From positions 164,984 to 228,983 of the forward strand of contig JBPOEZ010000003.1 of NCBI GenBank assembly GCA_051252005.1: DNA of 64,000 nt, given 5' to 3'. This DNA is from Alphaproteobacteria bacterium. Lineage in GTDB: Bacteria; Pseudomonadota; Alphaproteobacteria; Caulobacterales; Maricaulaceae. Below the pieces are notes generated by a model, which was not told the DNA's origin, did no database searches, and saw nothing but the letters and a program-made list of their open reading frames with translations. Shown here one piece after another: positions 1 to 34,612 of this stretch (position 1 is its first letter; each line of letters opens with the position of its first letter). The position numbers were made by a program, and so were the translations under genes.

Positions 1-1595
1 CGACACAAGCTGAGAGCGGCGGGCCGCCTCAATTAGCATGGGCGGCTGATCAAGTAGCAGAGCCAATTTCGTGTGCTTCGATAGGGTTGAGGGCCTTGCT
101 TGAAAGCTCACTTGAGCAAGTCCGAGCGCTTTCGCTGACTCGAACACTGGATGCTGAAGGCTGGGCCACATCAGGATATCTTCCCACACCAACGATAGTT
201 GAAGCGGCACAAGCATTGTATCAAAACCATTCTGTTGAAGATATAGCGCGCTCGGATGCGGGCGCGAAGAACTTGAATGCGACGACGCAATGTCTACGAG
301 ATATCATTTCTGCCACGCATGAAAAACGAGAGAAGACGATTTGTTTTGTGACCGGCGTGCCAGGGTCAGGCAAAACGCTCGCTGGGCTAAATATGGCAAC
401 AGAGGCCGTCAATCGGCCTGACGGCGAGACGGCCGTTTTTCTATCGGGCAATGGACCTCTTGTCGATGTCTTAAGGGAAGCTCTCGCACGGGACCAAAAG
501 GAACGGACAGGCTGCTCGAAAATAGATGCTAAGCGCGAGGTCTCTAGCTTTGTTCAAAACATCCATCATTTCCGGGATGAGGCACTCAAGGATACTAAGG
601 CGCCGCCGGAGCACATCGTGATCTTCGATGAAGCGCAAAGGGCGTGGGACAAACATCAAGCCTCTAAGTTCATGCAGGCCAAAAGAGGTCAAACCGGTTT
701 CAATAAGTCCGAACCTGAATTTTTGATTGAAGTTATGGACCGCCATGAGGATTGGTCTGTCATCATTTGCCTTGTTGGCGGTGGCCAGGAGATCAACACG
801 GGCGAAGCGGGTCTTTCAGAATGGATAAGGGCCTTAGAGGGACGCTTCACCGAGTGGAATGTACATCTTTCAGATCGCCTCCTAGATCCGCATTATGGGC
901 TGGCAGAGACTGCGCTAGCGCTGAAGGCCGACAAAAGAATTCAGTGGCAACCGGATCTTCACTTAGGTGTCTCCATGCGGTCCTTTCGGGCGGAGGCTCT
1001 GTCCGGCTTTGTGGCTGCAGTGCTGGACGGTGATGCTGGAGAGGCATCTCGTCTTTTTGCGACGATCAAAACCCGCTACCCTATCGCTTTGGCACGGGAC
1101 CTGGAAACCGCACGCAAATGGCTAAGAGGCCATGCGCGTGGAAATGAACGGTTTGGATTTATGGCTTCCTCAGGCGCCCATCGCTTAAGGCCTGAAGGCT
1201 TGAATGTCCGCGTTAGTATTGATGCCGTGAATTGGTTTCTCAATGGGCCTGAAGATGTGCGCTCCGCTTATTACCTCGAAGAAGTTGCTACTGAGTTTGA
1301 TGTACAGGGCCTGGAAGTGGACTGGGCAGGTGTGTGTTGGGACGCGGACCTTCGTTATGTAGCCGGCGCTTGGGATATGTTGGCGTTTCGAGGGACCAAG
1401 TGGCAAAATGTTAACCAGGAAGCACGCAAAACTTATTTGATAAATGCCTATAGGGTTATTCTGACAAGGGCACGCCAAGGGCTCGTTATTTATATTCCAA
1501 AAGGGGATCCCTCAGATCCAACGCGTCCTCCGTGGTTTTATGACGAGACGGTGGAGTTTCTAGTTAGTTGCGGGATACCGATTTCAAGCATTTAG
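1..1595 (+). CDS. DUF2075-type (Schlafen-helicase-like) P-loop NTPase; the 5' end is probably outside the window
   Basis: Track ORF 87..1595. Walker A GVPGSGKT, Walker B IVIFDEAQRAW, SF1-like C-terminal motif ILTRARQGLVIYIP. The same frame has no stop from nt 3 up to the TTG at 87, so the gene probably begins upstream of the window. Confidence 0.7.
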   Translation, partial: TQAESGGPPQLAWAADQVAEPISCASIGLRALLESSLEQVRALSLTRTLDAEGWATSGYLPTPTIVEAAQALYQNHSVEDIARSDAGAKNLNATTQCLRDIISATHEKREKTICFVTGVPGSGKTLAGLNMATEAVNRPDGETAVFLSGNGPLVDVLREALARDQKERTGCSKIDAKREVSSFVQNIHHFRDEALKDTKAPPEHIVIFDEAQRAWDKHQASKFMQAKRGQTGFNKSEPEFLIEVMDRHEDWSVIICLVGGGQEINTGEAGLSEWIRALEGRFTEWNVHLSDRLLDPHYGLAETALALKADKRIQWQPDLHLGVSMRSFRAEALSGFVAAVLDGDAGEASRLFATIKTRYPIALARDLETARKWLRGHARGNERFGFMASSGAHRLRPEGLNVRVSIDAVNWFLNGPEDVRSAYYLEEVATEFDVQGLEVDWAGVCWDADLRYVAGAWDMLAFRGTKWQNVNQEARKTYLINAYRVILTRARQGLVIYIPKGDPSDPTRPPWFYDETVEFLVSCGIPISSI

Positions 1596-1691
1596 TGAAA
1601 GATTTTCCCCTCGCTAAATTTTGGGGTGGAAACATTCGTTGCTTACTTCTTCTCAGGGGGCAAACCGGACCTCAGCGAGTGCGGAATTTCA

Positions 1692-1742
1692 AACATTACC
1701 AGCGGCTGTTTTGGAGCGATTTTAGGACGCTGGTAAGAGGAC
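1692..1742 (+). repeat. Leader-head repeat copy A (AACATTACCAGCGGCTGTTTTGGAGCGATTTTAGGAC...GAGGAC)
   Basis: Aligns by eye with 2445-2506, 31643-31704 and the reverse complement of 8065-8125. All share the same 5' boundary (AACATTACC). Confidence 0.65.
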
Positions 1743-1777
1743 CGTTATTTGAACAGACTAGGCTTCAGGCCCGAGAT

Positions 1778-2320
1778 TTAGTCTAGGGGCGGACCAGGAA
1801 AACTGCTCTCATGTCGTTTCATATCTATTTCAAAAGTTTTAGAAATAGTGGGGTCTCCAGATTTGCTCGGGAATTCAGCCTCCAAACGTATGCAGAGTTT
1901 TTCAATATCGCTTTCGATATATACTTTATTAATTGCTCTTGCAGAGGTGTCGTGGTTATAGGCATCTTCAGACTTTTTGATTTCAATTTCTCCCATCTCC
2001 ATTTTAACGGGCCTATCACATCCCCCTGAATATGCAGATATTCCCGATGTAATCGCATCATAACGGGTGTCGAGATACTCAGGATAGCGCGATATTCGTG
2101 CCGAAATCCAAAAATCATGGTCGTCCCAAGACGCTCCGCTTGATCCGGAGAATGCAGTAACGCTAGCAGACACATTCCAGCCCTCAAAACTGACATCATT
2201 GGTTTGCTTAAACACGCGGGTCTTATAAATCACGCAGCCGCTTAAGGTGACCATTAGTCCAACGAGGGCAAAATTTAGACTAAGACGTCCAAGCCATCTC
2301 TTCATGGTGAGTTGAATCAT
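1778..2320 (-). CDS. Hypothetical lipoprotein
   Basis: Track ORF. N-terminal signal with lipobox LSGC. No recognisable family. Confidence 0.6.
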   Translation of the reverse strand: MIQLTMKRWLGRLSLNFALVGLMVTLSGCVIYKTRVFKQTNDVSFEGWNVSASVTAFSGSSGASWDDHDFWISARISRYPEYLDTRYDAITSGISAYSGGCDRPVKMEMGEIEIKKSEDAYNHDTSARAINKVYIESDIEKLCIRLEAEFPSKSGDPTISKTFEIDMKRHESSFPGPPLD

Positions 2321-2444
2321 GACGTCTATTTCGTCCCTCAGTAAATATCGTTCGACCTAATATTTTTAATTCTTACTTTAAGTTAAAGATTATAGAAAAC
2401 CACCGAGAATTATCCCATTTCCGATAGATGGTGGCGTATCGACT

Positions 2445-2506
2445 AACATTACCGGCGGCCGTTTTTGGGCGACAAAGGCCTCTGGGCTAATGTCCGCAAT
2501 GAGGAT
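2445..2506 (+). repeat. Leader-head repeat copy B (AACATTACCGGCGGCCGTTTTTGGGCG...GCTAATGTCCGCAATGAGGAT)
   Basis: Same head as copies A, D and E. Its last ~22 nt (GCTAATGTCCGCAATGAGGAT) recur at 4996-5016, where the leader of recombinase module 1 resumes. Confidence 0.7.
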
Positions 2507-2560
2507 GATCTTCTCAATCAGAGGGCTGAGTCGGATTTAAAATTCTGAACCACATTCATG

Positions 2561-3304
2561 TTATTGATGTGGTTCAATGGGCGGAAGTGACATCCCGTAG
2601 GCAGCGTAGTCGCCAAGTCCTGAAGAACGGTAAGGTGCGTGAAAGTATCCGTTATCCCCCCACGCTGACCCCAAACTATTCTTTATTCTCCAAAGTCTCG
2701 ACGTATTGTCGTATCCAGTGATGACAACCATGTGACTGTATTTCACGCCGTTAGGGTTCACCACAAAGGGATCACGACCTGTCCAGTTTATAAATGCATA
2801 ATCAATATCCATTGCCGCCGCGACAGGCGATCCACTCGCCAGAGTATATTTGACTTGGTCATCACCGGAGCAAGGTAAAAAGACTGGCGCGTAAATGTCG
2901 CGAAGGATATCGCAATTATCACTATCCCACGGAACACTCCCTTGGCTTGCCCGCGGGACATAGGAATCACTCAATTGCATGGAGACCGTTTCTGGATCAG
3001 CTCCGTTGTCACAGTGGACACCAGAAGAACAATTGTGGATCCACGCGGCTCCCACATCATAAAGCTTATTTGTGATCGCCAGATGGTAGCTTTCTATCAG
3101 CGCTGCGAAAGAGAAAGCTGTGCAAGCGCCTGAGCAGGGCAATTGGCTTTTTACAGGCGAAATTCTGCCTTCATTCACGAGATTCACGGATGGGCGTGCT
3201 GACAATGGCAGAAACTTAAACTCTCTGCCTAAAAAGTCCCCGGGCTGGTAACGCGCAATGAAATCATTTTCGGGAGGTTTGAACTTTACGGGGTGATCTA
3301 TCAT
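2561..3304 (-). CDS. Papain-like (C1 family) cysteine peptidase
   Basis: Motifs SPVKSQLPCSGACTAFSF (Gln / catalytic Cys region), HMVVITGYD (His) and WRIKNSLGSAWGDNGYF (Asn/Trp region). No obvious signal peptide. The 4-nt ATGA overlap with the upstream gene suggests translational coupling. Confidence 0.75.
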   Translation of the reverse strand: MIDHPVKFKPPENDFIARYQPGDFLGREFKFLPLSARPSVNLVNEGRISPVKSQLPCSGACTAFSFAALIESYHLAITNKLYDVGAAWIHNCSSGVHCDNGADPETVSMQLSDSYVPRASQGSVPWDSDNCDILRDIYAPVFLPCSGDDQVKYTLASGSPVAAAMDIDYAFINWTGRDPFVVNPNGVKYSHMVVITGYDNTSRLWRIKNSLGSAWGDNGYFHAPYRSSGLGDYAAYGMSLPPIEPHQ

Positions 3305-4749
3305 CCTCCCTCTAGCTCCGCGAGACGTGCCGCCGTTTCGAGCTGGGCAATACGTGCCTGATCAACCAAAGTATCAATTGTCAACATATCGATCAATTGC
3401 TGGCTTGCGGTAACATCTGGCGGGTTTAAAGTGGCAAGCGCCTCGCGACGTGCGACCTCGTCTTGCAATGCCTTAAGTTCTGCAGCTGCTTCTACCTCGC
3501 GAGCGGCCTCTAGTGCTTGCACTTCCGTTTTAATCGCATCCACTGCTGATGTCAGGGCGGCAATTGGTGCGCCAACCTGTTTGTAGCCGGCTTTTGTCAA
3601 ATTGCCCTTTTTCGAAAACTCAATGGTATATTCAAGACTCTCGAATGGGGCAGCAGAAACGACTAATTTATCTATGTAGCCAAGCTGAGCAACCTTGGCG
3701 CGATGGACGTGAATTTCAGACATAGCTACGGATGCAGGATATGGAAATGGTTTTGATGGATCTTTAATTTTCTCAAAGACCAACCGTCCCGGTTGCGGGG
3801 TGCGATAGGAAATTCCTTTGGCATTGATTGTTTTTTTGTCATCGAGATTGTCAATGCCATTTGCGTTGCTATCGGCTTCAAGCTTTACAAAGACATACAT
3901 GCTCTGCTTTTGGGTCGTGGTTGGGCTATTGCCTGCCCACTTCTTCAGAGTTGCTTCGGGAAGAGCATAGGGGGTCTTGTTTTCCCGGTCAGAGCCTTTT
4001 AGCGGCCAGTAAATAGGTTTTGTAGTGTGAGATATTGGCTTTAGCAAATCGGCGACATGTGCAATTTGTGCTTGCACTGCTGCGTTTGCGTCCCTCACTT
4101 CTGTAAGCTTAGCTTTAATATTTGGATCAAGGGCTGGGTCACTGGTATCAACTATGCCTTTGAATCCAGCTACCAGTTTGTTTAATTCAGTTTTACGTTT
4201 ATTAAGCGCTGCTGTTCTTGTTTTAAGTTCAGCTAATCCTGCATTAGCATCAGCTACGGCTGCTGGAATGCCCGCAGCGACGTTACAAGCATAAACGGGT
4301 GTTAATCCGGTTCCGGCTGGTACCCCCAGCGCTGCGCCAGCTACTTTGATCGCAGTTAATAATGCTGGCCCCGCCTCATCTTTAACGCTGGCATTTACTG
4401 TTTTCAGTAAGCGCGTGTCTTCATAAAAAGTAACTTCGACACCTGCTGAATTAAACCATGTCGAAAGTGATTGCGGATCAATAACAAATCGCGCATCAGC
4501 ATCTTCAATAGACCTATCTTTAACCGCGAAAGATGTAACAATTTTCATTTCGGCAGCAATATTATTCGCTGGATCAGCCTTTATGCATTCTGCAACACGG
4601 CGCGTTATATTGAATTCGAATTGTGTTAGCGGCAAGACATGAACAAGTCCCGTTTGAGGACCGGCTTGGTATTCATAGGTGTTGAGTGTTGAGCTACATC
4701 CAATCAGAACAATTGTCGCTGGAATGCTAATTCGCTTAATTTGTTTCAT
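3301..4749 (-). CDS. Hypothetical lipoprotein with coiled-coil segments
   Basis: Signal plus lipobox VLIGCSS. Ala/Leu/Glu-rich heptad-like stretches in the middle and at the C-terminus. No family recognised. Confidence 0.6.
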   Translation of the reverse strand: MKQIKRISIPATIVLIGCSSTLNTYEYQAGPQTGLVHVLPLTQFEFNITRRVAECIKADPANNIAAEMKIVTSFAVKDRSIEDADARFVIDPQSLSTWFNSAGVEVTFYEDTRLLKTVNASVKDEAGPALLTAIKVAGAALGVPAGTGLTPVYACNVAAGIPAAVADANAGLAELKTRTAALNKRKTELNKLVAGFKGIVDTSDPALDPNIKAKLTEVRDANAAVQAQIAHVADLLKPISHTTKPIYWPLKGSDRENKTPYALPEATLKKWAGNSPTTTQKQSMYVFVKLEADSNANGIDNLDDKKTINAKGISYRTPQPGRLVFEKIKDPSKPFPYPASVAMSEIHVHRAKVAQLGYIDKLVVSAAPFESLEYTIEFSKKGNLTKAGYKQVGAPIAALTSAVDAIKTEVQALEAAREVEAAAELKALQDEVARREALATLNPPDVTASQQLIDMLTIDTLVDQARIAQLETAARLAELEGG

Positions 4750-4995
4750 GCTGCGCCCCTAAATGTAGTTCCAACTAATTAGAAATAGCTCACCAAACTC
4801 GTTTTAGAGACGTTAGTATTCCAAATAAGTACATCTTATGATAGAGCATTGCCTGCAATTCGTCTAGTATATTTTGTAGAGACTTTAATTATTGAGAGTC
4901 ATAGGGAGGCCATATCACATGCATTTGTTTTATAGATTTTCGTACTCTGGGATTAACTCAGCCAATCCCCTAGATTAATCAAAGTGAGAGGTTTT

Positions 4996-5155
4996 GCTAA
5001 TGTCCGCTTTGAGGATCTTTTTCCGTTTTCAACATTCTCACACAATCCACTGGACTTTGTGCGCAAAGGAAGCGGTAGTGTGTTGCGGCCCAATGTGAGG
5101 GTCTTGTCTCGGTAGTAGCGGCCACGATGTGTGGGCGTCATTTACGGAGATTGAA
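4996..5155 (+). promoter_or_regulatory. Conserved 5' leader of recombinase module 1 (3' part only; the head is missing)
   Basis: Highly similar at the nucleotide level to 31684-31844. Contains hairpin candidates (GGCCCA..AGGGTC) and an RBS GGAGA before the ATG at 5156. Confidence 0.6.
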
Positions 5156-5404
5156 ATGGACATTCAAACACAAAAACCCGAAATTAAAGCACCGCGTACT
5201 GGAAGCAAACAAGCCAAGCTCGTTGTCATGCTCTCGCGCAAAAACGGCGTTACACTTGCGAAGGCCAGCGAGACTTTAGGATGGCTGCCGCATACCACCT
5301 CCGCAACCATGACAGGGCTGCGTGGGCGCGGCTATGAGATCACGCGGATTAAACGCGAGGGTAAAGATACGCTGTACGTCATCCATCCTGACGAGGCTGA
5401 GTAA
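5156..5404 (+). CDS. DUF3489-like small winged-helix protein
   Basis: Track ORF 5129..5404. I prefer the ATG at 5156 because it follows GGAGA and matches the start of the paralogue at 31845 (MDxQTQ..IKAPR.GSKQAKLV). HTH-like GVTLAKASETLGWLPHTTSA. Confidence 0.75.
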   Translation: MDIQTQKPEIKAPRTGSKQAKLVVMLSRKNGVTLAKASETLGWLPHTTSATMTGLRGRGYEITRIKREGKDTLYVIHPDEAE

Positions 5405-5904
5405 TGCGGCGGGCGAGCAAGATCGCATCAGAAGTCGCCGAGCTTGAAACACTGGACCGCGTTGCCCTCGCCGCGCAGTGGGAAGCTCTAATGAAACGTT
5501 CGCCGCCTAAGGCCTGTAGCCGTGTGTTTCTCCTCAGGGCTTTATCCTATGAACTGCAAAGTAAGCATGCTCCTGATCTCAGCAAGACGGACATGAGGGC
5601 ACTCAAAGCAAGCTTGGGCAAAGTACCAAGCAGTGCCGTTGAGAATGACAGGGAAGAGGATGCTGCGACCACAACACCTAACGCCAAGACCAAGCCGAGA
5701 CGCAAGGCCCCTGCCCGTCTGGCCCTTGTGCCGGGTGCCCGACTAGTGCGGGAATGGAACGGACAGGCCTATACGGTCTCGGTGATCAAAGAAGGTTTTG
5801 TCTATAAGGACAGAACTTGGAGCTCGCTGAGCGCTATCGCCAAGGATATCACGGGCGCACATTGGTCTGGGCCTCGCTTCTTTGGCTTGGATAAGGCAGC
5901 CTAA
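5404..5904 (+). CDS. DUF2924-like protein
   Basis: C-terminal WNGQAYTVSVIKEGFVYKDRTWSSLSAIAKDITGAHWSGPRFFGL. TAATG overlaps with both neighbouring genes. Confidence 0.75.
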   Translation: MRRASKIASEVAELETLDRVALAAQWEALMKRSPPKACSRVFLLRALSYELQSKHAPDLSKTDMRALKASLGKVPSSAVENDREEDAATTTPNAKTKPRRKAPARLALVPGARLVREWNGQAYTVSVIKEGFVYKDRTWSSLSAIAKDITGAHWSGPRFFGLDKAA

Positions 5905-7598
5905 TGTCTTCCCAGCGCAAACGCTGCGCTGTTTACACCCGCAAATCAAGTGAGGAAGGTTTGCAGCAAGACTTCAACTCTCTGGATGCGCAGGCCGAGA
6001 GTTGCTCAGCTTATATTCTGTCTCAAGCGGGTGAAGGCTGGTCCAAGGTCGATAAGGTCTATTCTGATGGCGGTATATCTGGAGGCCATATGGATAGGCC
6101 CGGTTTGATTGCCTTGATCGCGGATATCAAAGCGGGGCTGATTGATATCATCGTCGTTTACAAAGTTGACCGACTAACACGGTCACTGGCCGACTTTGCG
6201 CGGCTAGTAGATGTCTTTGATAAACATGACGTCTCGTTTGTGTCGATCACTCAAGCGTTCAATACAACGACCAGCATGGGACGGCTAACGCTGAATGTCC
6301 TGCTCTCCTTCGCCCAGTTCGAACGGGAAGTGACGGCGGAGCGTATCAGGGACAAGATCGCAGCCTCAAAGAAACGGGGGCAATGGATGGGCGGCCTTCC
6401 ACCTCTTGGATATGATAATATTAACAAGAAGCTGGTGGCAAATTCTGATGAAGCAAACACAGTCCAGCATATCATGACGCGGTATGTAGAGCTTAAGTCT
6501 GTCACAAAGCTCAAGCATGAACTTGACCTTGATGGTTATCTTACCAAAACCCGCATAACAAGGAAGCAGTCTCAGACAGGCGGCAAGCCCTTTAGCCGCG
6601 GCCACCTCTACAAGCTCCTTTGCAATCCCGTTTACATCGGCAAGACCACACATAAAGGCGTGGTCTTTGACGGACAGCATGATCCTATCGTTGATCAGGA
6701 ATTATGGAATTCGGTACAAGCAGGGCTCAAAGCAAATGCTCCTAAGCGAAGGCGTTCCATTAACATCGCATCGAATAGTCTTCTCACAGGGATGATCTTT
6801 GAAGATAGCGGAGACCGCCTTTCTCCCGTGCATTCTAGAAAGCCCAATGGAAGGCGTTACCGCTATTACATCTCGGCGCGATTATCAAAAGGCGAAATGG
6901 ATGACGGGACGGCCTTGAGGCTTCCGGCCAAACAGATTGAGGGTCAGGTGTTTAGGCGTCTGACAGACCTATTAAGCAATACAGGCCAATTGATGGGTAT
7001 GGTAGACGGCTCACACCTGACACCCCAACAGGTTTCAAAGGTAGAGCAGCATGCAAGCGAGCTAGCCGCGCGCCTCACATCAAACTGCGTTGAAACGCAG
7101 AGAACCCTACTGATTGATATCATTCAACGGATTACCATCTCGCCCAAGGACCTTATGTTGGAGCTTCGGAGGGACGCATTATTTCCAGATGGCATTTGCT
7201 CCCAAAAAGTCAAACTCGAAAACGACGCCATTACGCTCGCCTATCCGCTACAGATGAAGCGGCGCGGCATTGAGACTAAACTCATCATTGGCGGCGTGGC
7301 GTTAGGGCAGCCAGACCCCGAACTTATCAAACTTATTGCCAAGGCCAGAAACTGGTATGGTGGCCTTAAGACGGGACGCTTCAAATCTATCAAAGACATC
7401 GCAGCAATTGAAAAAATGGATGACGGTGATGTCAGCAGAACCTTATCCCTCGCCTTTCTTGCCCCCTCGATCATTCATGACATCATTGCTGGTAATCATG
7501 CTATAAATCTCACGCCAAGAGACTTAAGCCGCAAAGCTAATAGGCTTCCATTAGATTGGGCGCAGCAGCGCAGCTTTCTAGGCATGAAAGCTACCTAA
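5904..7598 (+). CDS. Large serine recombinase (resolvase/invertase N-domain plus recombinase domain)
   Basis: CAVYTRKSSEEGLQQDFNSLDAQ (catalytic Ser region), VVYKVDRLTRS, GHLYKLLCNPVYIGK. 564 aa. No CxxC pairs where a zinc ribbon would normally sit. Confidence 0.9.
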   Translation: MSSQRKRCAVYTRKSSEEGLQQDFNSLDAQAESCSAYILSQAGEGWSKVDKVYSDGGISGGHMDRPGLIALIADIKAGLIDIIVVYKVDRLTRSLADFARLVDVFDKHDVSFVSITQAFNTTTSMGRLTLNVLLSFAQFEREVTAERIRDKIAASKKRGQWMGGLPPLGYDNINKKLVANSDEANTVQHIMTRYVELKSVTKLKHELDLDGYLTKTRITRKQSQTGGKPFSRGHLYKLLCNPVYIGKTTHKGVVFDGQHDPIVDQELWNSVQAGLKANAPKRRRSINIASNSLLTGMIFEDSGDRLSPVHSRKPNGRRYRYYISARLSKGEMDDGTALRLPAKQIEGQVFRRLTDLLSNTGQLMGMVDGSHLTPQQVSKVEQHASELAARLTSNCVETQRTLLIDIIQRITISPKDLMLELRRDALFPDGICSQKVKLENDAITLAYPLQMKRRGIETKLIIGGVALGQPDPELIKLIAKARNWYGGLKTGRFKSIKDIAAIEKMDDGDVSRTLSLAFLAPSIIHDIIAGNHAINLTPRDLSRKANRLPLDWAQQRSFLGMKAT

Positions 7599-7633
7599 GC
7601 TAACAACTCCCCCAACACTTACATCATTGCAAC

Positions 7634-7831
7634 ATGCAGACTGCATCAGGCCGCAAACATCTTGGACGCTAAATTTGGGATCTGAGACGCTCTCGGAAAT
7701 AGGGCTAATTATCGGGCATTTTCCGTCTCATTTCGCGTCTCTACTCTGCATATATCCGGCTAAACCCCCGTTACTAGGGGACTTTCTCAGTCAGGACGTA
7801 TCGGCGGTGAAAAGCGCAGCGTGCGTGGTAG
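7634..7831 (+). repeat. Conserved non-coding arm downstream of recombinase 1 (copy 1 of 2)
   Basis: About 198 nt, near-colinear with 34344-34541. The similarity ends exactly after GTGCGTGGTAG. Contains GAGACG/CGTCTC hexamers and a CCCC..GGGG hairpin. Confidence 0.8.
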
Positions 7832-7839
7832 TGGACGCA
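7822..7839. other. attP-like junction between the two islands (TGCGT-N8-ACGCA dyad)
   Basis: The sequence tgcgtggtagtggacgca straddles the point (7831/7832) where homology with the tRNA-proximal arm stops. Confidence 0.5.
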
Positions 7840-7866
7840 GTCCGCAGATAGCCCGTCTCACGCCCA

Positions 7867-8983: not shown

Positions 8984-9005
8984 AACTGTCTCCTTCCAGT
9001 TTGAA

Positions 9006-26721: not shown

Positions 26722-26732
26722 ATCTGATTTCC

Positions 26733-28007: not shown

Positions 28008-29299
28008 TGGATGTCTCCATTAAAGGGGGACGCACCTGTAAGGCTGCGTAATTTCATGTCTTGAGTGTTGACGATGCGCGCTGCATCAATGACCGCAAGC
28101 CCGGCTTCAATCAGGGCTTTACGGGCATTGAGCGTTGTCGTGAGGTCAAACTTTCCTGCCTGATACCCTTTGACAGACGCGTCATAGGCTGACCGTGCGT
28201 CAGGAAGCGCTTCATTTTCCAAAAGTATGAGCTGCTTTTGCGCAGATATGAGCTGCGCGCGCGCGGCATTTTGTTGTGAGCGCAGATCACGTTCAACCGC
28301 AACGCGGTTAAGTATTTCTGCCTGATGCCGAAACTCGGCGGCTTTCACGGCACCCTTGTTTCGATCAAATATTGGAAAGGGAACGCTCACGCCAAATAAC
28401 AGGGCGTTATCATTACCCTGCTCAAATCGCCTCAAACCGGCACTGAGGGTTATATCAGGCATAGATTGGGACTTAGCCAAGTCTTGATTAGCTTCGCTGA
28501 CAACAGTCTGTGCGCTCGCCATATTCAATAAAGGATGGCCTGCAATCCGGCTTTCGCCAATCACCGAAGACGGCAATGGCGCTGGCGTTCGGGCAATAGG
28601 CGCGGCAAATTTGGGATCAGCGTTGCCCCACATGCCCGCCAACATATAACGGAGTGTGTCCGTGCGCGCATTTGCGCGTTCAGCGGCGGCTTTCAGAGCC
28701 ACAGCATCAGCCCGGGATCTCGAAAGCTCAGGCGGAGCGCTTGCTCCGGCTTTCACCCGCTTACCTACAGTTTCTACGAGCGTTTGAGCTAAAAGAGCGG
28801 ACTCATTTGCAAAATTCGCGACCTGAAAAGCGGCCTCCAATTCATAGAATAAGATTGCCGCTTCGAGTTGGGTTTCCCGCAATATAGCGCTGCATTCTGC
28901 ACTCGCGAGTGCAGCATTCGCGCTTGCTGCGTCTCTACGAAGACGACGTTTATCGCCAAGCTCTAAAGTTTGAGCGAAAGAGAACGTCGCTTCCGATTGC
29001 CCAAATCCTGACAGAGCGCCCGATCCTGCAAAGTTTTCCAGTTCAACACCCACGACAGGGTTAAGTCGGCGTCCGGCTTGCTCCACTTCGGCCTGACGGG
29101 CTTTCGTTTCTAAAGCGGCGCGCCGAACCTGCGGAGAGGCATTAGTGATTTCTGCCATAACGGCAGGCAAAGTAAGCGGCGCGCCGGGCATAATTGCCGA
29201 CGCAGATTGATTCGACTCACCGCAGGGAGCCGCGACCGCAACACCCGCAAAGGCGGTTGCGGTCAGAACGCATACCGCGCCCCGTAATAATTTTAACAT
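28004..29299 (-). CDS. czcC: TolC-family outer membrane factor (CzcC-like)
   Basis: OEP repeats, and a 4-nt overlap with the adaptor gene. Confidence 0.8.
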   Translation of the reverse strand: MLKLLRGAVCVLTATAFAGVAVAAPCGESNQSASAIMPGAPLTLPAVMAEITNASPQVRRAALETKARQAEVEQAGRRLNPVVGVELENFAGSGALSGFGQSEATFSFAQTLELGDKRRLRRDAASANAALASAECSAILRETQLEAAILFYELEAAFQVANFANESALLAQTLVETVGKRVKAGASAPPELSRSRADAVALKAAAERANARTDTLRYMLAGMWGNADPKFAAPIARTPAPLPSSVIGESRIAGHPLLNMASAQTVVSEANQDLAKSQSMPDITLSAGLRRFEQGNDNALLFGVSVPFPIFDRNKGAVKAAEFRHQAEILNRVAVERDLRSQQNAARAQLISAQKQLILLENEALPDARSAYDASVKGYQAGKFDLTTTLNARKALIEAGLAVIDAARIVNTQDMKLRSLTGASPFNGDIQ

Positions 29300-29364
29300 T
29301 GAAATTTATTCCTCGTGATAACCTAGAGACAAAACCAAGTGACAACTTGGCTATTTGCTAAAGG

Positions 29365-29721
29365 TTAGGCACGGGGAGGACGATACAGACCCATAGGAGC
29401 CGCGCGAGGCGCGACGTCGTAGACATTAAGACTATATCCGAGCCTGGCTGATATAGTATCAGCAGCCGACGCCAGTTGGAGCGAGGTTGCATGGATATGA
29501 CAGCTTCCACAGTTGTGAGCATGATGATCATGTGGCGGCTTGTTCGGTCGTTCCTGCTTTTGATCAACAGAGGCTGAGGACACAGCACCTTCATCCTGAC
29601 AAGCAATCTCATCCGGCTCTACGGGATGAATATCCGGCGTCACCGTTGCAAAGCTCATCATAACCGCCACGCAGACAGTCAGCCAAAATTTGGCAAGGGA
29701 TATGTAGCGTGTTGCAAACAT
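29365..29721 (-). CDS. CzcI-like small periplasmic His/Cys protein
   Basis: N-terminal TM/signal segment, HDHHAHNCGSCHIH motif, C-terminal RPPRA. First gene of the czc operon. Confidence 0.5.
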   Translation of the reverse strand: MFATRYISLAKFWLTVCVAVMMSFATVTPDIHPVEPDEIACQDEGAVSSASVDQKQERPNKPPHDHHAHNCGSCHIHATSLQLASAADTISARLGYSLNVYDVAPRAAPMGLYRPPRA

Positions 29722-29727
29722 TGGGTC

Positions 29728-29758
29728 TAATTAGCACCTACAGTCACTGGAGGGTCAA
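29728..29758 (-). promoter_or_regulatory. MerR-type promoter (TTGACC-N19-TAATTA) with dyad CCTCCAGTGACTGTAGG
   Basis: Read on the minus strand. The 19-bp spacer contains an imperfect copy of the operator found at 30245-30259. Confidence 0.6.
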
Positions 29759-29776
29759 GAGAATAATACAGTCTGC

Positions 29777-30226
29777 TTATCCGATAGGTGTAAATTCTTT
29801 GTGAGTGTGATGATCGTCCAGACATTCGTCATGATTTGAAAGTGTTTGCAGTACTTTGCAATTCGCAATAACGCCGCCTGCGCAAGTAGACACCATGTGT
29901 TTTAATTCTGCCTCTAACGCTTCGAGTTGACTAAGCCGCCGCCTAACATCAGCGAGTTGTCGCCGCGCTATGCGGTCAACGCTGGCGCAATCAGTACCGG
30001 GGCTTTCTTGAAGATCAATCAAGTCTCGGATAGCTTCAATGGGAAAGCCTAGGTCTCTTGCGTGACGGATAAAATTTAAGCGCTCAACCGCAGCCTCGTC
30101 ATATATACGTTGCCCGCTGCCCGTTCTGTCAGGCTCCCGAATGAGTCCTATAGATTCATAGTAACGAATGGTCGTGACTTTTACGCCGCATTCGCGGGAC
30201 AGGATGCCAATGGTTTTCCGGCTCAT
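29777..30226 (-). CDS. MerR-family metal-responsive regulator (ZntR/CadR-like)
   Basis: The N-terminal HTH KVTTIRYYESIGLI. Cys in PGTDCAS plus CAGGVIANC in the metal-binding loop, a pattern expected for divalent-metal sensors. Confidence 0.8.
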   Translation of the reverse strand: MSRKTIGILSRECGVKVTTIRYYESIGLIREPDRTGSGQRIYDEAAVERLNFIRHARDLGFPIEAIRDLIDLQESPGTDCASVDRIARRQLADVRRRLSQLEALEAELKHMVSTCAGGVIANCKVLQTLSNHDECLDDHHTHKEFTPIG

Positions 30227-30238
30227 ATCATTTTTCTC

Positions 30239-30269
30239 TTGCCTCTACAGTGACTGTAGACAGTAGATT
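30239..30269 (+). promoter_or_regulatory. MerR-type promoter TTGCCT-N19-TAGATT with a perfect dyad CTACAGT-G-ACTGTAG
   Basis: Lies between the divergent merR-family gene and the CDF gene. The 19-bp spacer is the MerR-family hallmark. Confidence 0.7.
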
Positions 30270-30302
30270 ATTCTCGAAATTGCACAAGAGGACGATGATA
30301 AG

Positions 30303-30935
30303 ATGAGTGGATGTTGCGACGATAAAGTTTTTGAGGGTATGTCAGACGGCTATAAACGCGCCTTGATGACGGTAATCCTGATCAATGCTATCATGTTCTT
30401 TGTGGAGATAACAGCGGGTCTCAAATCAGGTTCCCAAGCTCTACTCGCTGACTCTCTGGATTTTGCAGGCGATAGCGCGACCTACACGATTAGCTTCTTG
30501 GTGATCGGCGCGTCATTGCGCACGCGCGCCATGGCATCTCTCTTTAAGGGGGGCAGCCTTGCTGTCATTGCCATGATTATCTTGGCATCGTCTTTATATC
30601 GCTTTTTAGGTGACACAGTCCCGGCGGCGGAGACTATGGGCCTCATCGGGTTTCTGGCCCTGCTGGCCAATCTCACGAGCCTGTTGGTTTTAATGCGTTG
30701 GCGCGATGGCGATTCAAATGTGCGGTCTGTCTGGCTTTGTTCGCGCAATGACGCCATTGGTAATGTCGGCGTTATCATCGCCGGGATCGTGGTCGCAATA
30801 ACGGGCGCGGCTTGGCCAGATTTACTGGTCGCTATCCTACTTGCAACACTGTTCTTACGCTCTGCCGTCTCAATCGTTTCACAGGCGCGAGCCGAACTTA
30901 AATTTGGTGAGGTTATCCAACATGATAAATGCTGA
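30303..30935 (+). CDS. Short cation diffusion facilitator (CDF) transporter, membrane domain only
   Basis: LLADSLDFAGDS and SRNDAIGN motifs. About 6 TM helices and no cytoplasmic C-terminal domain. Confidence 0.7.
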   Translation: MSGCCDDKVFEGMSDGYKRALMTVILINAIMFFVEITAGLKSGSQALLADSLDFAGDSATYTISFLVIGASLRTRAMASLFKGGSLAVIAMIILASSLYRFLGDTVPAAETMGLIGFLALLANLTSLLVLMRWRDGDSNVRSVWLCSRNDAIGNVGVIIAGIVVAITGAAWPDLLVAILLATLFLRSAVSIVSQARAELKFGEVIQHDKC

Positions 30936-31485
30936 AACAGGTCTGATTGGACTGATGCTCTTTAATGGCTTTCTATCAATTCCATTTGGGATTCTCGCTA
31001 AACGCTCCTTTGCAAAAAACGGTAATCTCACGCCTTTTCTGGCCGCTTGGTCTGGCGTTGCGATGCACGGCCACGCTTTGATGACCTTTGGGATTGCATG
31101 GATAAACCGAGGAACCCTTTACAAGCCGCTATATTGGACGGTTTTGCCGGGGCTTCTGGTCCTAACAGTGGGCGCTTATATTATCTATCTTGGGCGGAAG
31201 GCTTATGGTGATCAATCACGGGTCTACGGGCTAAAAGAAGATTCCCTGATTACTCACGGCATTTATACCCGATCTCGAAACCCGCAATATTTTGGTTATG
31301 GCCTCATGTTCTTGGGAGCTGCGATTGCGTCAGGGTCAATGCTGGCCTTTGTCTTCGTCGCTGTGTTTGCCCTCATGGTGCATGTTGGAATAACAAAGGT
31401 TGAAGAACCGCATCTTGAATGCATATTTGGCAGACCATTTTCAGACTATAAAAAAAGGGTTGGTCGATATTTTACTTTATTGTGA
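30922..31485 (+). CDS. ICMT / phospholipid-methyltransferase-family membrane protein
   Basis: Track ORF 30841..31485. The ATG at 30922 is preferred because it overlaps the CDF gene by only 14 nt. RSRNPQYFGYGLMFLG motif. Confidence 0.65.
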   Translation: MINAETGLIGLMLFNGFLSIPFGILAKRSFAKNGNLTPFLAAWSGVAMHGHALMTFGIAWINRGTLYKPLYWTVLPGLLVLTVGAYIIYLGRKAYGDQSRVYGLKEDSLITHGIYTRSRNPQYFGYGLMFLGAAIASGSMLAFVFVAVFALMVHVGITKVEEPHLECIFGRPFSDYKKRVGRYFTLL

Positions 31486-31642
31486 AAAGAGATTTGCCTT
31501 TCAAGGTGACTACTTTCAAACTTAAGGCTGTCAGCGATAGTCTTAGCATCGCCTCAAGAATAGTACGGGGCTAATGACCAATTTGGGGATGGACTTTCTT
31601 TTTTTAAGTGCCCGAAATAGATCGAATACTCTGCATATCGCA

Positions 31643-31844
31643 AACATTACCAGAGGCCGTGTTTGGGCGTTTTAAGACTCCGAGCTAAGGTCGTCTTAGA
31701 GGATCTTTTTCCGTTTTCCATTATCTTCCACAACCCACTGGACTTCCTTCGCAAAGGAAGCAGTAGTGTCTTGCGGCCCTGATGTGAGGGCCTTGTCTCA
31801 GTAGTAGCGGTCACATTGAGTGATCGCCAATCACGGAGACCAAA
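31643..31844 (+). promoter_or_regulatory. Complete conserved leader of recombinase module 2 (head = repeat copy E, 31643-31704)
   Basis: Begins with AACATTACCAGAGGCCGTGTTTGGGCG. Hairpins CTTCCTT-cgca-AAGGAAG and GGCCCT-gatgtg-AGGGCC. RBS GGAGA before the ATG at 31845. Confidence 0.65.
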
Positions 31845-32090
31845 ATGGACACTCAAACACAAACATTAGATATCAAAGCCCCGCGCGCAGGGAGCAAACA
31901 GGCAAAGCTTGTGGCCATGCTATCGCGTAAATCAGGGGTCACGCTTGCAAAGGCGAGTGAGGCATTGGAATGGCTTCCTCATACAACGTCAGCCGCCATG
32001 ACTGGCTTGCGTAAGCGCGGTTACGTCATCACCAGCATAAAACGGGAAACCAAAGACATGCTATATGTCATTCACCCGGATGAGGCATAG
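31845..32090 (+). CDS. DUF3489-like small winged-helix protein (paralogue of 5156..5404)
   Basis: MDTQTQTLDIKAPRAGSKQAKLVAMLSRKSGVTLAKASEALEWLPHTTSAAMTGLRKRGY. Confidence 0.8.
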   Translation: MDTQTQTLDIKAPRAGSKQAKLVAMLSRKSGVTLAKASEALEWLPHTTSAAMTGLRKRGYVITSIKRETKDMLYVIHPDEA

Positions 32091-32092
32091 CC

Positions 32093-32608
32093 GTGGCAAG
32101 CAGCCATAAAGTAGCGGCGGGCCTTCTTGAACTATCAGACATGGACCGCGCGGGATTAGCGGCTAAGTGGCAGGATATTATGCACCGCCCTGCCCCAAAG
32201 GCCGCCAGCCGTATATTTCTCCTTCGGGCCTTATCTTTTGAGCTTCAAAGCAAACATGCACCCGGTCTGGGCAAGGCAGACCTAAAGGCCCTGAGGGCAA
32301 GCTTTGGTAAAATCTCCAGTGTCGGGGCCGACAACATCAGGGAAGATGTAGGCGGCACTGCAGTGAGTGTAGATCAGCCCTTGGGACCTAAGGCTAAGCC
32401 AAAACGGAAGTCTTCGCCTCGCCTTAGCTTAGTCCCCGGCTCCCGCCTTGTGCGCGAATGGAACGGTCATGCCTATACGGTGGCCGTTATCAAAGAAGGC
32501 TTTGTCTATAAAGACAGGACATGGAGCTCGCTCTCTGCCATTGCCAAAGATATCACGGGCGCCCACTGGTCTGGCCCGCGCTTCTTTGGGCTGGATAGTG
32601 CCGCCTGA
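32093..32608 (+). CDS. DUF2924-like protein (paralogue of 5404..5904)
   Basis: GTG start. C-terminus WNGHAYTVAVIKEGFVYKDRTWSSLSAIAKDITGAHWSGPRFFGL. Confidence 0.75.
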   Translation: MASSHKVAAGLLELSDMDRAGLAAKWQDIMHRPAPKAASRIFLLRALSFELQSKHAPGLGKADLKALRASFGKISSVGADNIREDVGGTAVSVDQPLGPKAKPKRKSSPRLSLVPGSRLVREWNGHAYTVAVIKEGFVYKDRTWSSLSAIAKDITGAHWSGPRFFGLDSAA

Positions 32609-34302
32609 TGCCCTCGGGTCGTAAACGCTGCGCGGTCTATACGAGGAAGTCCACTGAGGAAGGACTGCAGCAGGACTTTAACTCTCTGGACGCGCAAGCT
32701 GAGAGCTGCTCGGCCTATATCCTGTCTCAAGCGGGGGAGGGCTGGAGCCATATAGGCAAAGTCTATTCAGACGGCGGTATATCGGGCGGTCATATGGAAC
32801 GGCCCGGTTTATTGGCCATGATTGCCGACATTGAATCGGGGTTAATTGATATTGTTGTTGTCTATAAGGTGGATAGGCTTACCCGGTCTCTGGCCGACTT
32901 TGCCAAGCTTGTAGATGTGTTTGATAAGCACCGTGTGTCCTTTGTCTCAATCACCCAAGCTTTTAATACCACCACCAGTATGGGACGGCTGACACTCAAT
33001 GTCCTGCTCTCCTTTGCCCAATTTGAACGCGAAGTCACAGCAGAGCGTATCAGGGATAAGATAGCCGCCTCTAAGAAGCGCGGACAGTGGATGGGAGGCT
33101 TGCCGCCCCTTGGGTATGATAATATTGATAAGAAGCTCGTGGTGAGTGCTGGTGAAGCCAGAACAGTAAAACATATCATGAAACGCTATGTGGATATGAA
33201 GTCCGTGAGCAAGCTTAAGACCGAACTGGATAGGGATGGCTATCTGACAAAGAGCAGAATGACCAAGAAAAAGTCACAAACGGGCGGCAGGCCCTTTAGT
33301 CGGGGGCATCTCTACAAGCTGCTTTGTAATCCCGTTTACATAGGCAAGATCACGCATAAGGGCGAAGTGTTTGACGGGCAGCATGAGCCCATTGTTGATC
33401 AAGAATTATGGGAGCAAGTTCAGGCGGGTCTGAAGCATAATGCACCCAAGCGCAGGCGATCCATCAACATCGCGTCCAATAGTCTTCTCACAGGTATGAT
33501 ATACGGCGAGGAAGGTGAGCGTCTTACGCCCATCCATTCTAAGAAGCCCAATGGCCGGAGATATCGCTACTATATCTCCGCAAGGTTATCCAAAGGTGAG
33601 ATGGATGATGGGACAGCTCTGCGGCTTCCGGCCAAACAGATAGAAGGCCATGTCATCAACCGGCTGACTGATCTGCTGGGCCATACAAGCCAAATGATGC
33701 AGATGGCTGGCAGCCAGCAGATAAAGCCGCATCAGGCCTCTAAGCTGGACGTGCATGCTAATGAGCTCTCACAGCGCATCACATCAGATAATATTGATAC
33801 CCAGAGAACCGTGCTGATTGATCTCATCTCCCAGATAACTATTAGCCCCAAAGACCTAACACTGGACCTACGAAGAGACGTCTTACTCCCCGAGTGCCTT
33901 AAATCCAGCAAACCCAAAAGCGGAGGCGACAACATCGCCTCCCTCAGCTACCCGCTGCAGATGAAACGGCGCGGGGTTGAGACCAAGCTTATTATTGGCG
34001 GCGTAGCCTTAGGCCACCCGGACCCCGAACTTATAAAGCTGATTGCCAAAGCTAGGGGTTGGTATGACGGGCTTAAGAGAGGACGATATGAATCCATCAA
34101 AGACATCGGGGTCGCCCATAAATTGGATAACGGCGATGTCAGCCGCACGCTGTCTCTCGCCTTCCTCGCTCCGTCAATCATTCATGATATCATTGCAGGA
34201 AAACATCCCGTTGATCTCACGCCAAGAGACATAAGCCGCAAAGCTTCACGGCTACCATTAGATTGGGCTCAGCAGCGCAAGTTTCTGGGCATGAAAGCCT
34301 AG
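32608..34302 (+). CDS. Large serine recombinase (paralogue of 5904..7598, same 564-aa length)
   Basis: CAVYTRKSTEEGLQQDFNSLDAQ. Highly similar to copy 1 over the N-terminal two thirds and more diverged around residues 350-450. Confidence 0.9.
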   Translation: MPSGRKRCAVYTRKSTEEGLQQDFNSLDAQAESCSAYILSQAGEGWSHIGKVYSDGGISGGHMERPGLLAMIADIESGLIDIVVVYKVDRLTRSLADFAKLVDVFDKHRVSFVSITQAFNTTTSMGRLTLNVLLSFAQFEREVTAERIRDKIAASKKRGQWMGGLPPLGYDNIDKKLVVSAGEARTVKHIMKRYVDMKSVSKLKTELDRDGYLTKSRMTKKKSQTGGRPFSRGHLYKLLCNPVYIGKITHKGEVFDGQHEPIVDQELWEQVQAGLKHNAPKRRRSINIASNSLLTGMIYGEEGERLTPIHSKKPNGRRYRYYISARLSKGEMDDGTALRLPAKQIEGHVINRLTDLLGHTSQMMQMAGSQQIKPHQASKLDVHANELSQRITSDNIDTQRTVLIDLISQITISPKDLTLDLRRDVLLPECLKSSKPKSGGDNIASLSYPLQMKRRGVETKLIIGGVALGHPDPELIKLIAKARGWYDGLKRGRYESIKDIGVAHKLDNGDVSRTLSLAFLAPSIIHDIIAGKHPVDLTPRDISRKASRLPLDWAQQRKFLGMKA

Positions 34303-34343
34303 CCAGCCCAACACCTCCCTCTAATCATTTACATCACGCCAGT

Positions 34344-34541
34344 ATGCAGACTACATCTGGCAGGAAACATGTTGGACGCGGAATTTGGGATCTGAGACGC
34401 GTCTCAAAATAGGCCCTATTATAGGCCAATTACCGTCTCTTATCGCGTCTCTACTTCGCTCATATCCGGCTAAACCCCCGTTACTACGGGGCTTTCTCAG
34501 GTAGTACGTATCGGTGGTGAAAAGCGCAGAGTGCGTGGTAG
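34344..34541 (+). repeat. Conserved non-coding arm downstream of recombinase 2 (copy 2 of 2), running into the tRNA 3' end
   Basis: Colinear with 7634-7831. The last bases, TGGTA, are the complement of the tRNA ..TACCA end. Confidence 0.8.
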
Positions 34542-34612
34542 GGGGAGAGGGACTTGAACCCCCGACCAGTCCGTTATGAGCGGACGGCTCTAACCAACTG
34601 AGCTATCCCCCC
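34536..34612 (-). tRNA. tRNA with anticodon CAT (elongator Met, or Ile2 if lysidine-modified)
   Basis: Hand-folded: GGGGGGA/TA/GCTC-AGTTGGTTA-GAGC/C/GTCCG-CTCATAA-CGGAC/TGGTC/GGGGG-TTCAAGT-CCCTC/TCCCCCT-A-CCA. 77 nt with an encoded CCA. A G1-U72 pair rules out the initiator type. Confidence 0.85.

Follow-up and report, generated by a model that had tools for sequence, protein, structure and literature searches.

The window, as we call the whole 64,000-nt stretch of alphaproteobacterial DNA analysed here (contig JBPOEZ010000003.1), holds within its first 34,612 nt a tRNA-Met(CAT) gene and, to the left of it, two copies of a gene module encoding a large serine recombinase (LSR). We consider it probable, with a chance of roughly three in four, that these represent two related integrative islands standing head-to-tail at the 3' end of the tRNA-Met gene, each with a module of its own, which entered by means of the LSR. 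Island 1 ends on its right side with module 1 and the adjoining arm 1; island 2, which ends with module 2 and arm 2, fills the space from there to the tRNA. The locus is made up of serine-recombinase integrative elements of probable phage origin, a kind already known, and its points of interest are the targeting of tRNA 3' ends across the recombinase family, the two partner proteins encoded with the recombinase, the extended attachment (att) region bearing repeats, and the recurrent tandem stacking.

Two paralogous recombinase modules

A first-pass annotation, which had been made from the sequence alone, described two paralogous blocks in direct orientation, each with a leader, three coupled genes and an arm, and we could confirm this description by a repeat finder, by alignments and by Pfam. 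Five collinear direct-repeat segments with 76-83% ungapped identity and a spacing of 26.7 kb link positions 4996-7834 with 31684-34544, and a global alignment of the two blocks gave 73% nucleotide identity over 2861 columns. According to pairwise alignments, the homology begins with GCTAA at 4996/31684 and stops with ...GTGCGTGGTAG at 7831/34541. Both blocks have the same direct orientation and consist of a leader, a DUF3489 gene, a DUF2924 gene, the gene of a 564-amino-acid LSR (Rec1 and Rec2, respectively) and an arm (Table 1). The protein identity between copy 1 and copy 2 amounts to 81% for DUF3489, 64% for DUF2924 and 80% for the recombinase, and neither recombinase is truncated or has lost the catalytic R-x-S and D-R..R motifs. 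Since the stop and start codons of consecutive module genes either overlap by 1 nt or lie 2 nt apart, translational coupling of the three genes is plausible.

Two further statements of the annotation had to be revised. The length of the arms, given there as about 198 nt, is actually 233 and 239 nt, and a deletion of the intervening 26.7-kb island by homologous recombination between the blocks, which had been proposed, is unlikely because their identity is 73% and the longest identical run measures 25 nt.

The 3' end of tRNA-Met is the insertion point

Because tRNA-Met lies on the minus strand, at 34536-34612, the TGGTAG that closes arm 2 at 34536-34541 is the CTACCA-3' end of the tRNA itself. 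Arm 2 provides the last six bases of tRNA-Met and the tRNA gene remains intact, which agrees with the earlier observation that this arm runs straight into the 3' end of an intact tRNA. Relatives of the locus (L084, L085 and L086) were found by a search with the SIMPL protein encoded just right of tRNA-Met. The SIMPL proteins of L084 and L085 are 98% identical to that of the window, and their DNA is 94-95% identical to it from exactly position 34536 rightwards; left of the tRNA, however far the genes next to it are concerned, both are unrelated to the window and lack a recombinase module. Beside the tRNA they read ...GTTTGAGGTTTGT and then TGGTAG, where the window reads ...GCGCAGAGTGCG and then TGGTAG. 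L086, which is a more distant relative, is also unoccupied at tRNA-Met. The 3' end of tRNA-Met is the real insertion point.

What the two arms have in common with the tRNA 3' end and with the site that is unoccupied in L084 is confined to the six nucleotides TGGTAG, and for this reason the crossover is presumed to lie within them. A shared core of 6 nt is consistent with the crossover expected of a serine recombinase, and not with the long direct repeats of tyrosine integrases. The conserved att sequence reaches far beyond 50 bp. Islands with a single module were found at the same tRNA-Met, next to the same SIMPL gene, in two other species: the one in L007 resembles island 1, sharing its helicase at 80% amino acid identity, and the one in L044/L089 resembles island 2, with a MerR protein that is 100% identical and cargo DNA that is 91-92% identical.

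An extended att region at the island junction

The DNA that follows arm 1 had been taken for the unrelated start of a cargo; instead, it consists of a conserved P' half-site and a CAGGGAA array, so that the junction reads, in this order, P-arm, TGGTAG, P' half-site and CAGGGAA array. The array opens with the palindrome AATTCCCTGCTTTACAGGGAATT at 7867-7889 and continues with direct copies at 7892, 7989, 8010, 8031 and 8052, the last being CAGGGTA, and with an inverted copy at 7972; the final four copies are spaced by exactly 21 bp. Seven exact copies of CAGGGAA are found inside 190 nt, as compared to six in the other ~72 kb.

The same junction recurs elsewhere. Contig 23 of Algimonas arctica (L004) carries a module that is 70% identical in protein and an arm joined to the same P' sequence; GTGCGTGGTAGTGGACGCAGTC (22 nt) is 100% identical between the window and this contig, with flanks at about 70%, and CAGGGAA copies are kept while their spacers diverge. 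A. arctica has a second module (L005), which is located at tRNA-Met. A Limibaculum metagenome-assembled genome (MAG) has two modules 23 kb apart on a single contig, both arms of which end with GCGTGGCGG, the one leading into tRNA-Ser and the other into TGGGCGCAGTCTGC...GGTCTC...AATTCCCTGGTTGCAGGGAA. The P' motif TGG-N-CGCAGTC...GTCTC is also present in L071 and L022, and a motif scan found the combination of P' and CAGGGAA at three arm ends only, namely those of the window, A. arctica and Limibaculum. L022, from a deltaproteobacterial MAG, is an apparently complete element of about 11.9 kb (positions 1-160 to 11840-11870), for which neither DUF3489 nor a tRNA was detected. On the left it opens with a P'-like site, GATGGCGCAGTCTGATTCGAATTGGTCTC, behind which GGTTGAC is repeated seven times, the first two copies together making up the palindrome GTCAACCGGTTGAC; TGGCGCAG recurs at its right end.

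CAGGGAA arrays also lie within the arms of many loci of a clade associated with tRNA-Ser, which brings the total to 16 of 41 arms, and DUF3489 is encoded in all evaluable modules (13/13) among these 16. The att region is large, with about 235 nt on one side and about 250 nt on the other, and combines a conserved layout with a repeat motif that varies between lineages. Such an organization points to a putative sequence-specific binding of accessory proteins to the att repeats, for which any individual protein can be named as a candidate only.

The recombinase family is specialised on tRNA 3' ends

A scan with a recombinase alignment, keeping one genome per species, yielded 80 loci of the family, 60 of which were scanned for tRNAs. 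The DUF2924 gene lies directly upstream of the recombinase gene and is co-oriented with it in both copies of the window and at 64 of the 80 loci, and DUF3489 was found by a hidden Markov model at 37 of them. A tRNA gene starting 193-400 nt past the recombinase stop codon was detected at 27 of these 60 loci; it is encoded on the other strand and turns its 3' end towards the recombinase gene. The identity of the tRNA follows the clade: Met in the closest clade, Ser (GCT, GGA, TGA) in a clade of about 45% identity, and Thr(TGT) in sphingomonads. Arm length and P-arm sequence are specific to the clade as well, and the arms run directly into TGG.... This family-wide juxtaposition to tRNA ends cannot be chance; it is the signature of a family of integrases specialised on tRNA 3' ends. 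Searches of a plasmid collection returned only distant recombinase matches (65-71% nucleotide identity), and in open literature searches we found no description of this recombinase family as such.

Nine loci of a distant clade from Planctomycetota and Acidobacteriota (L045-L050, L053, L061 and L066) show another arrangement, with tRNA-Asn(GTT) located ~1-6.7 kb upstream of the recombinase gene on the same strand. There the module may lie at the tRNA-distal end of small elements.

Across nine modules of the tRNA-Met clade the last ~110 nt of the leader (5049-5155 and, in copy 2, 31737-31844) are conserved, with the pattern ACTGGACTT...GCGGTAGTGT...GTCTCGGTAGTAGCG...ACGGAGAC upstream of the DUF3489 gene. 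Hairpins are predicted in which GUCUC pairs with the Shine-Dalgarno sequence GGAGAC of the DUF3489 gene, and compensatory changes in 6 of the 27 predicted pairs give modest support to them. GGTAGT, a motif similar to the att core, occurs twice in the leader. A search of the window with Rfam returned tRNA only and matched neither the leaders nor the arms to a known RNA family.

Content of the two islands

The positions of all features are compiled in Table 1.

Table 1 Features of the tandem locus at tRNA-Met, in the order of their position in the window (aa, amino acids; ORF, open reading frame).
Feature	Position	Strand	Remarks and basis
Right-hand cargo of island 1	1-4995		continues left of the window; ORFs, Pfam
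Schlafen-type helicase	to 1595	+	659 aa, 3' part in the window; ORF, Pfam
180-aa ORF	1778-2320	-	no family match
Papain-like C1 peptidase	2561-3304	-	Pfam
482-aa ORF	3301-4749	-	no family match
Leader 1	4996-5155	+	non-coding start of module 1
DUF3489 gene, copy 1	5156-5404	+	82 aa, winged-helix-like; Pfam PF11994 E=5.7e-15, weak HTH_39 match
DUF2924 gene, copy 1	5404-5904	+	166 aa; Pfam PF11149 E=7e-38; start overlaps DUF3489 stop by 1 nt
Large serine recombinase 1 (Rec1)	5904-7598	+	564 aa; Resolvase and Recombinase domains
Arm 1, P side of the att region	7599-7831	+	233 nt; ends with GAAAAGCGCAGCGTGCG and TGGTAG; GAGACG/CGTCTC motifs
TGGTAG at the island 1/island 2 junction	7826-7831		presumed crossover site
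P' half-site	7832-7862	+	TGGACGCAGTCCGCAGATAGCCCGTCTCACG; taken as left end of island 2
CAGGGAA repeat array	7867-8058		about eight copies; motif counts
44-nt inverted repeat, left arm	8087-8130		repeat finder; partner at 31638-31681
Copper cargo of island 2	8204-20083		ORFs, Pfam
IS3-family insertion sequence	20084-21402	+	orfA 20148-20435, orfB 20549-21268
Zn/Cd/Co-type cargo	21403-31637		Pfam, comparison with L089
44-nt inverted repeat, right arm	31638-31681		immediately before module 2
Leader 2	31684-31844	+	aligned with leader 1
DUF3489 gene, copy 2	31845-32090	+	81 aa; Pfam
DUF2924 gene, copy 2	32093-32608	+	171 aa, GTG start; Pfam
Large serine recombinase 2 (Rec2)	32608-34302	+	564 aa; 80% identical to Rec1, 86% to the L090 recombinase
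Arm 2	34303-34541	+	239 nt; last six bases are the tRNA 3' end
tRNA-Met(CAT)	34536-34612	-	intact, integration target; ARAGORN, Rfam

The source organism is placed near Algimonas, as an uncultured marine member of the Hyphomonadaceae/Maricaulaceae group. Island 1 could be followed beyond the window, since a contig of the same organism (L002) extends the latter by 8.2 kb leftwards. This contig continues the island with the rest of the helicase, a DUF5681 protein, a ParB_N/N6_N4 methyltransferase, an HTH_3 protein and an M78 peptidase to about position -4112, so that island 1 reaches at least 4.1 kb past the start of the window. Left of the island (L002/L093, about -4436 to -8900) follow a TonB-dependent receptor without STN domain and PhoD, and past PhoD a 5'-truncated second copy of the island's HTH_3 gene, which is 92% identical and at which all Logan contigs end; more related material probably lies further to the left. 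The Hyphomonas homologue of the TonB receptor has the STN domain and is preceded by an extracytoplasmic function sigma factor and FecR. A truncation of the receptor by the island was considered and rejected, as the protein keeps its signal peptide and is simply without the STN domain.

Phage-type remnants of island 1 comprise the helix-turn-helix (HTH) and M78 peptidase genes, a putative repressor/antirepressor pair, the ParB-methyltransferase and DUF5681. Two relatives, L007 (1085-3050) and L033 (5610-7540), show the gene order ParB-methyltransferase, DUF5681 and large terminase (TerL), in which DUF5681 thus occupies the position of the small terminase (TerS), and by this position in relatives DUF5681 is a candidate TerS. 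The DUF5681 protein of island 1 is longer (256 aa; L002 12867-13637), with no terminase alongside. Neither in positions 1-34612 nor in the 8.2 kb to the left were phage structural genes found, and island 1 contains no large terminase; neither a replication module nor a helper was identified. We infer that island 1 is phage-derived, either as a helper-dependent, satellite-like element or as a decaying prophage. In the position equivalent to the cargo of island 1, L007 (3965-9125) carries the same helicase together with a SMODS cyclase and a patatin, a CBASS-like pair. The cargo beside module 1 may consist of defence genes.

The copper cargo of island 2 encodes a Grx/MauE protein, CopD, CopC, a CsoR/RicR-like repressor, CusC, CusB, CusA, CusF, a PepSY_TM protein and an acyltransferase, and its part at 15785-20083 is 91% identical to the related island L089 in a Maricaulaceae MAG. 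The Zn/Cd/Co-type cargo encodes a P-type ATPase, CzcA, CzcB, CzcC, a DUF2946 protein, MerR, a CDF transporter and a PEMT-like methyltransferase. Between the two, the IS3-family element stands where L089 has M78, HTH, ParB/methyltransferase and DUF5681 genes, and the window is inverted at 21403-31692 relative to L089. The breakpoints of this inversion in L089 show short inverted repeats (TAAGCCTCTG...). The whole cargo of island 2 is enclosed by a 44-nt inverted repeat, TCGCAAACATTACCAG...GGGCGTTTTAAGACTCC, which is 82% complementary. Copies of this repeat occur in two other genomes (L089 8492-8544 and L004 17942-17963), and in a circular form it would enclose the integration module and the att region.

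A comparison of positions 30001-34541 with L090, an independent metagenome contig, revealed 99-100% identity of the cargo up to about 31700, past which the module drops to about 90% DNA identity, with 57-80% around 33600-33900, and the recombinase to 86% in protein. The identity drops where the repeated block begins and where the 44-nt inverted repeat is located. The same cargo is here joined to a different module lineage, from which it follows that cargo and integration modules have been exchanged. Moreover, the MerR protein (29777-30226) is 100% identical to that of a different species, whose SIMPL protein is 77% identical, and to those of several unrelated metagenome contigs, which points to a recent horizontal spread of the metal cargo.

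The recombinases and their partner proteins

Both recombinases contain the PF00239 catalytic domain (E=5e-37 and 9e-38) with YTRKS(S/T)EEG and VDRLTRS, the catalytic motif being R13-K14-S15, and the PF07508 Recombinase domain at residues ~182-277 (E=3e-13 and 2.5e-15). They match the catalytic domain of the TP901-1 integrase (E=6e-23) as well as further integrase chains and those of SprA/YokA. Judged by their catalytic and recombinase domains, they are genuine LSRs. Their zinc-ribbon-like region (residues 293-353; Rec1 DNA 6780-6962) is devoid of cysteine and matches PF13408 below its threshold (E=0.048, 14.5 bits vs a cut-off of 25.3), and the C-terminus is formed by an additional domain of about 120 aa (residues ~437-560; DNA 7212-7598, residues ~437-564), which matches phrog_14161.

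Among the closest described counterparts is AcaML1, a temperate phage of Acidithiobacillus caldus that is reported to integrate at 'srrA' (the paper's spelling) with only 10-bp repeats (PMC3826726). As in the window, a DUF2924 gene (Gp4) is located directly upstream of the LSR, to which the window recombinase is 49% identical over residues 4-357; the zinc ribbon of the AcaML1 homologue passes the Pfam cut-off. AcaML1 differs in that it is a complete 59-kb phage, that its recombinase is encoded in two pieces by separate ORFs (Gp3/Gp2, annotated as 'site-specific recombinase large/small subunit') and that DUF3489 was not detected in it. The C-terminal domain of the window recombinase is homologous to the separate ORF Gp2, annotated as 'recombinase small subunit'. 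Unlike AcaML1, the islands of the window are devoid of structural genes, stand in tandem and use tRNA-Met as their target.

The recombinase of Wolbachia phage WO is a full-length homologue (34% identity, 98% coverage), and WO, again, is a complete phage. WO phages integrate at protein-coding or intergenic sites and are not known to use tRNA ends. A rearranged WO-like region has been described in which the recombinase gene is located immediately downstream of a DUF2924 gene (PMC10299305), and DUF2924 has been reported to match in part the RAMA DNA-binding domain (PMC11342252).

As to the partner proteins themselves, the AlphaFold model of DUF2924 (pLDDT 75) comprises a four-helix domain at the N-terminus and a small beta domain at the C-terminus, connected by a disordered linker, and gave no significant structural match in PDB or BFVD. 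A single-sequence structure model of DUF3489 was too poor (pLDDT 52) and was discarded, and sequence searches found no solved relative of either protein. The DUF2924 family is very large, with at least 7,855 matches. By their position, DUF3489 and DUF2924 are candidates for directionality factors.

Relation to other integration systems

Canonical serine integrases such as those of phiC31, Bxb1, TP901-1 and SPbeta (SprA) share with the window recombinases the catalytic and recombinase domains and a very short identity between sites. They are characterised by minimal sites of ~40-50 bp, a four-cysteine zinc ribbon and a recombination directionality factor encoded elsewhere (PMC12286644). The window recombinases differ by their cysteine-less zinc-ribbon region, the extra C-terminal domain and the two small proteins presumably translated along with them, and their att sites by flanks of ~235 nt and ~250 nt, phased repeats and the tRNA 3' end as target.

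The use of a serine recombinase at a tRNA had been called unusual by the first-pass annotation. This holds insofar as tyrosine integrases are described as the rule at tRNA and tmRNA genes (PMC4383910, PMC5704250), but scattered precedents exist: apart from AcaML1 (PMC3826726), vB_PamS_Pami6 of Paracoccus aminophilus has been reported as an active temperate phage that encodes a serine recombinase and has a predicted integration site in tRNA-Met (PMC6536676). The likeness to Pami6 refers to the description of target and enzyme class; it is a complete phage, for which accessory genes or tandem arrays are not described. Tyrosine-integrase islands of the Islander type at tRNA/tmRNA genes resemble the locus in their integration at the tRNA 3' end, the restoration of the gene by the element, the tandem arrays and the resistance or defence cargo, but displace a tRNA fragment of 15-80 nt, whereas the serine enzyme of the window shares 6 nt. 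Satellites of the type of phage-inducible chromosomal islands unite an integrase, a repressor module and a TerS-like gene that redirects packaging, lack structural genes and are mobilised by a helper phage; island 1, with its HTH and M78 genes, its ParB-methyltransferase, DUF5681 at the TerS position of relatives and no structural genes, might be comparable to them.

A parallel in the mode of working is offered by the staphylococcal cassette chromosome (SCC, including SCCmec). Its LSRs, CcrAB, place islands at the rlmH 3' end in such a way that the gene stays functional, and related elements accumulate there in tandem. SCC differs from the locus in that its recombinases, usually a CcrA/CcrB pair, are of another subfamily, and in that it has a protein-coding target, belongs to another phylum and carries other accessory genes.

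How the tandem arrangement may have arisen

According to the reading we favour, each LSR would recombine an attP, composed of arm, TGGTAG and P', with an attB to which the tRNA contributes its 3' end together with the flank downstream of it, and strand exchange would take place within TGGTAG. The second element would have entered at the junction left by the first, by analogy to the stacking of SCC elements at rlmH. Excision of island 2 would then join 34541 to 7832, with the predicted junction ...GCGCAGAGTGCGTGGTAGTGGACGCAGTCC, and would leave a scar in which arm 1 is joined to the tRNA, predicted to read ...GCGCAGCGTGCGTGGTAGGGGGAGAGGG. The extended flanks may serve as binding sites for accessory parts of the system. 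The winged-helix protein DUF3489, DUF2924 and/or the additional C-terminal domain of the recombinase are candidates for such parts, which might assemble into a higher-order complex or control expression and directionality. The islands would descend from temperate phages of the AcaML1/WO type, and island 2 would have lost its phage backbone through the IS3 insertion and the inversion, and would be left with its integration module, the att sequences of both sides and the genes for metal resistance. The two-module layout at a different tRNA (Ser) in Limibaculum supports such a stacking.

Several observations weigh against this reading. Between -8223 and 5200, BLAST and scans allowing mismatches, for which P', the attB flank of L084 and CAGGGAA served as queries, failed to reveal a left att junction of island 1, and within the same range no displaced tRNA fragment or P'-like site was found at the distal side. 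Due to this missing junction, neither the number of two islands nor the order of integration is proven, and the locus is open to an interpretation as a cointegrate. Since the left flank of island 1 is not the one seen in L084, it is impossible to reconstruct a clean empty site, and around the proposed core the dyad symmetry of the reconstructed attP and attB (11/22) is too weak to position the crossover. No excision product, circle, island-1-only or island-2-only chromosome was found: every contig with Rec1, the 180-aa ORF, the Grx/MauE gene of island 2 or SIMPL at 100% identity shows the same arrangement, an exact junction search in viral contigs gave no match, and a junction scan of metagenomes with a loose pattern gave 120 chance matches, none of them related. 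Island 2 is rearranged and without regulatory and transfer genes, and may be immobile now. The two recombinases of a genome are similar to each other, with 80% identity in the window and 90% in A. arctica, which makes an in situ duplication or a gene conversion possible. Lastly, whatever role is given to DUF3489, DUF2924 and the repeats is deduced solely from where they lie and what they occur with, and structure searches with the two proteins gave no functional clue. The comparison with related genomes that the annotation had suggested thus provided unoccupied sites in L084 and L085 and single-module relatives at the same tRNA, but no clean empty site and no single-island variant of this organism. 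Its proposal that a second element integrated at the att junction of a relative stands as far as serine-recombinase islands at the tRNA-Met 3' end are concerned; two separate events and their order are unproven.

A further difficulty is that canonical serine integrases recombine attP with attB only and do not target attR or attL, so that an entry there is non-standard. This would be avoided if the block were one composite element, generated by the fusion of circles or by the capture of a module before integration, in which the internal attP is unused and the whole enters via the attP of module 2 and excises only as a unit. Indeed, the junction after arm 1 has exactly the structure of an attP, and the elements of the family are highly mosaic: L089 has backbone genes of island 1 between cargo blocks of island 2 with a single module, and L090 joins identical cargo to a recombinase only 86% identical. 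We nevertheless regard this origin as unlikely, because single-module islands like island 1 (L007) and like island 2 (L044, L090) are each located directly at tRNA-Met and the two-module layout recurs at the tRNA-Ser of Limibaculum. An old in situ duplication of the module within a fixed, immobile island, with recombinases that are relics or have been co-opted, would account for Rec2 being the best full-length match of Rec1 and for the 90% identity between the A. arctica copies, and it fits the absence of polymorphism for either island alone and the disruption of island 2 by insertion sequence and inversion. It is a quite improbable explanation given that both three-gene modules are intact, that proteins from other samples (85%, 75%) are closer to DUF2924 copy 1 than copy 2 is (64%), that Rec2 is nearer to the L090 recombinase than to Rec1, that the att junction is 100% identical over 22 nt between flanks of ~70% in another genus, and that close relatives are without the whole block.

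We give hardly any credence to the idea that the recombinases are mainly invertases or resolvases which reshuffle cargo between the 44-nt inverted repeats and not integrases. The enclosure of the cargo by this repeat would suit it, as would the inversion of 21403-31692 in comparison with L089, whose breakpoints carry short inverted repeats, but the 44-nt repeat is unlike the conserved site of arm, TGGTAG and P', the IS3 element at one inversion breakpoint is a simpler cause of the inversion, the proteins are large LSRs and not small invertases, and the family-wide juxtaposition to tRNA ends is the signature of an integrase. Within the favoured reading of stacked islands, it is a tentative and rather doubtful proposition that the family represents a mechanistically distinct class of serine integrases. 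Such a class would be defined by an extra C-terminal DNA-binding domain, the co-translated DUF3489 and DUF2924, att sites of ~500 bp with phased, clade-specific heptamers (CAGGGAA; GGTTGAC in L022), repeated retargeting to tRNA/tmRNA genes and the use of occupied junctions, and its heptamer arrays would be analogous to the arm-type sites of lambda integrase.

Implications for serine integrases and metal-resistance islands

Serine integrases are valued as simple systems of one protein and two sites of ~50 bp, and are generally described as inserting inside genes. The locus and its relatives point to a large, mostly unstudied branch of serine integrases in Alphaproteobacteria and beyond that hits precisely the last bases of tRNA genes. 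The locus also shows how a Cu/Zn/Cd cargo swaps integration modules, since it is found with 99-100% identity behind an 86%-identical recombinase and with 92% identity, in opposite orientation, behind a 74%-identical one. If the repeats and the partner proteins control recombination, a layer of accessory sites would be added to the biology of serine integrases; this would provide new, naturally retargetable integrases and a function for DUF2924, with its thousands of members, and for DUF3489.

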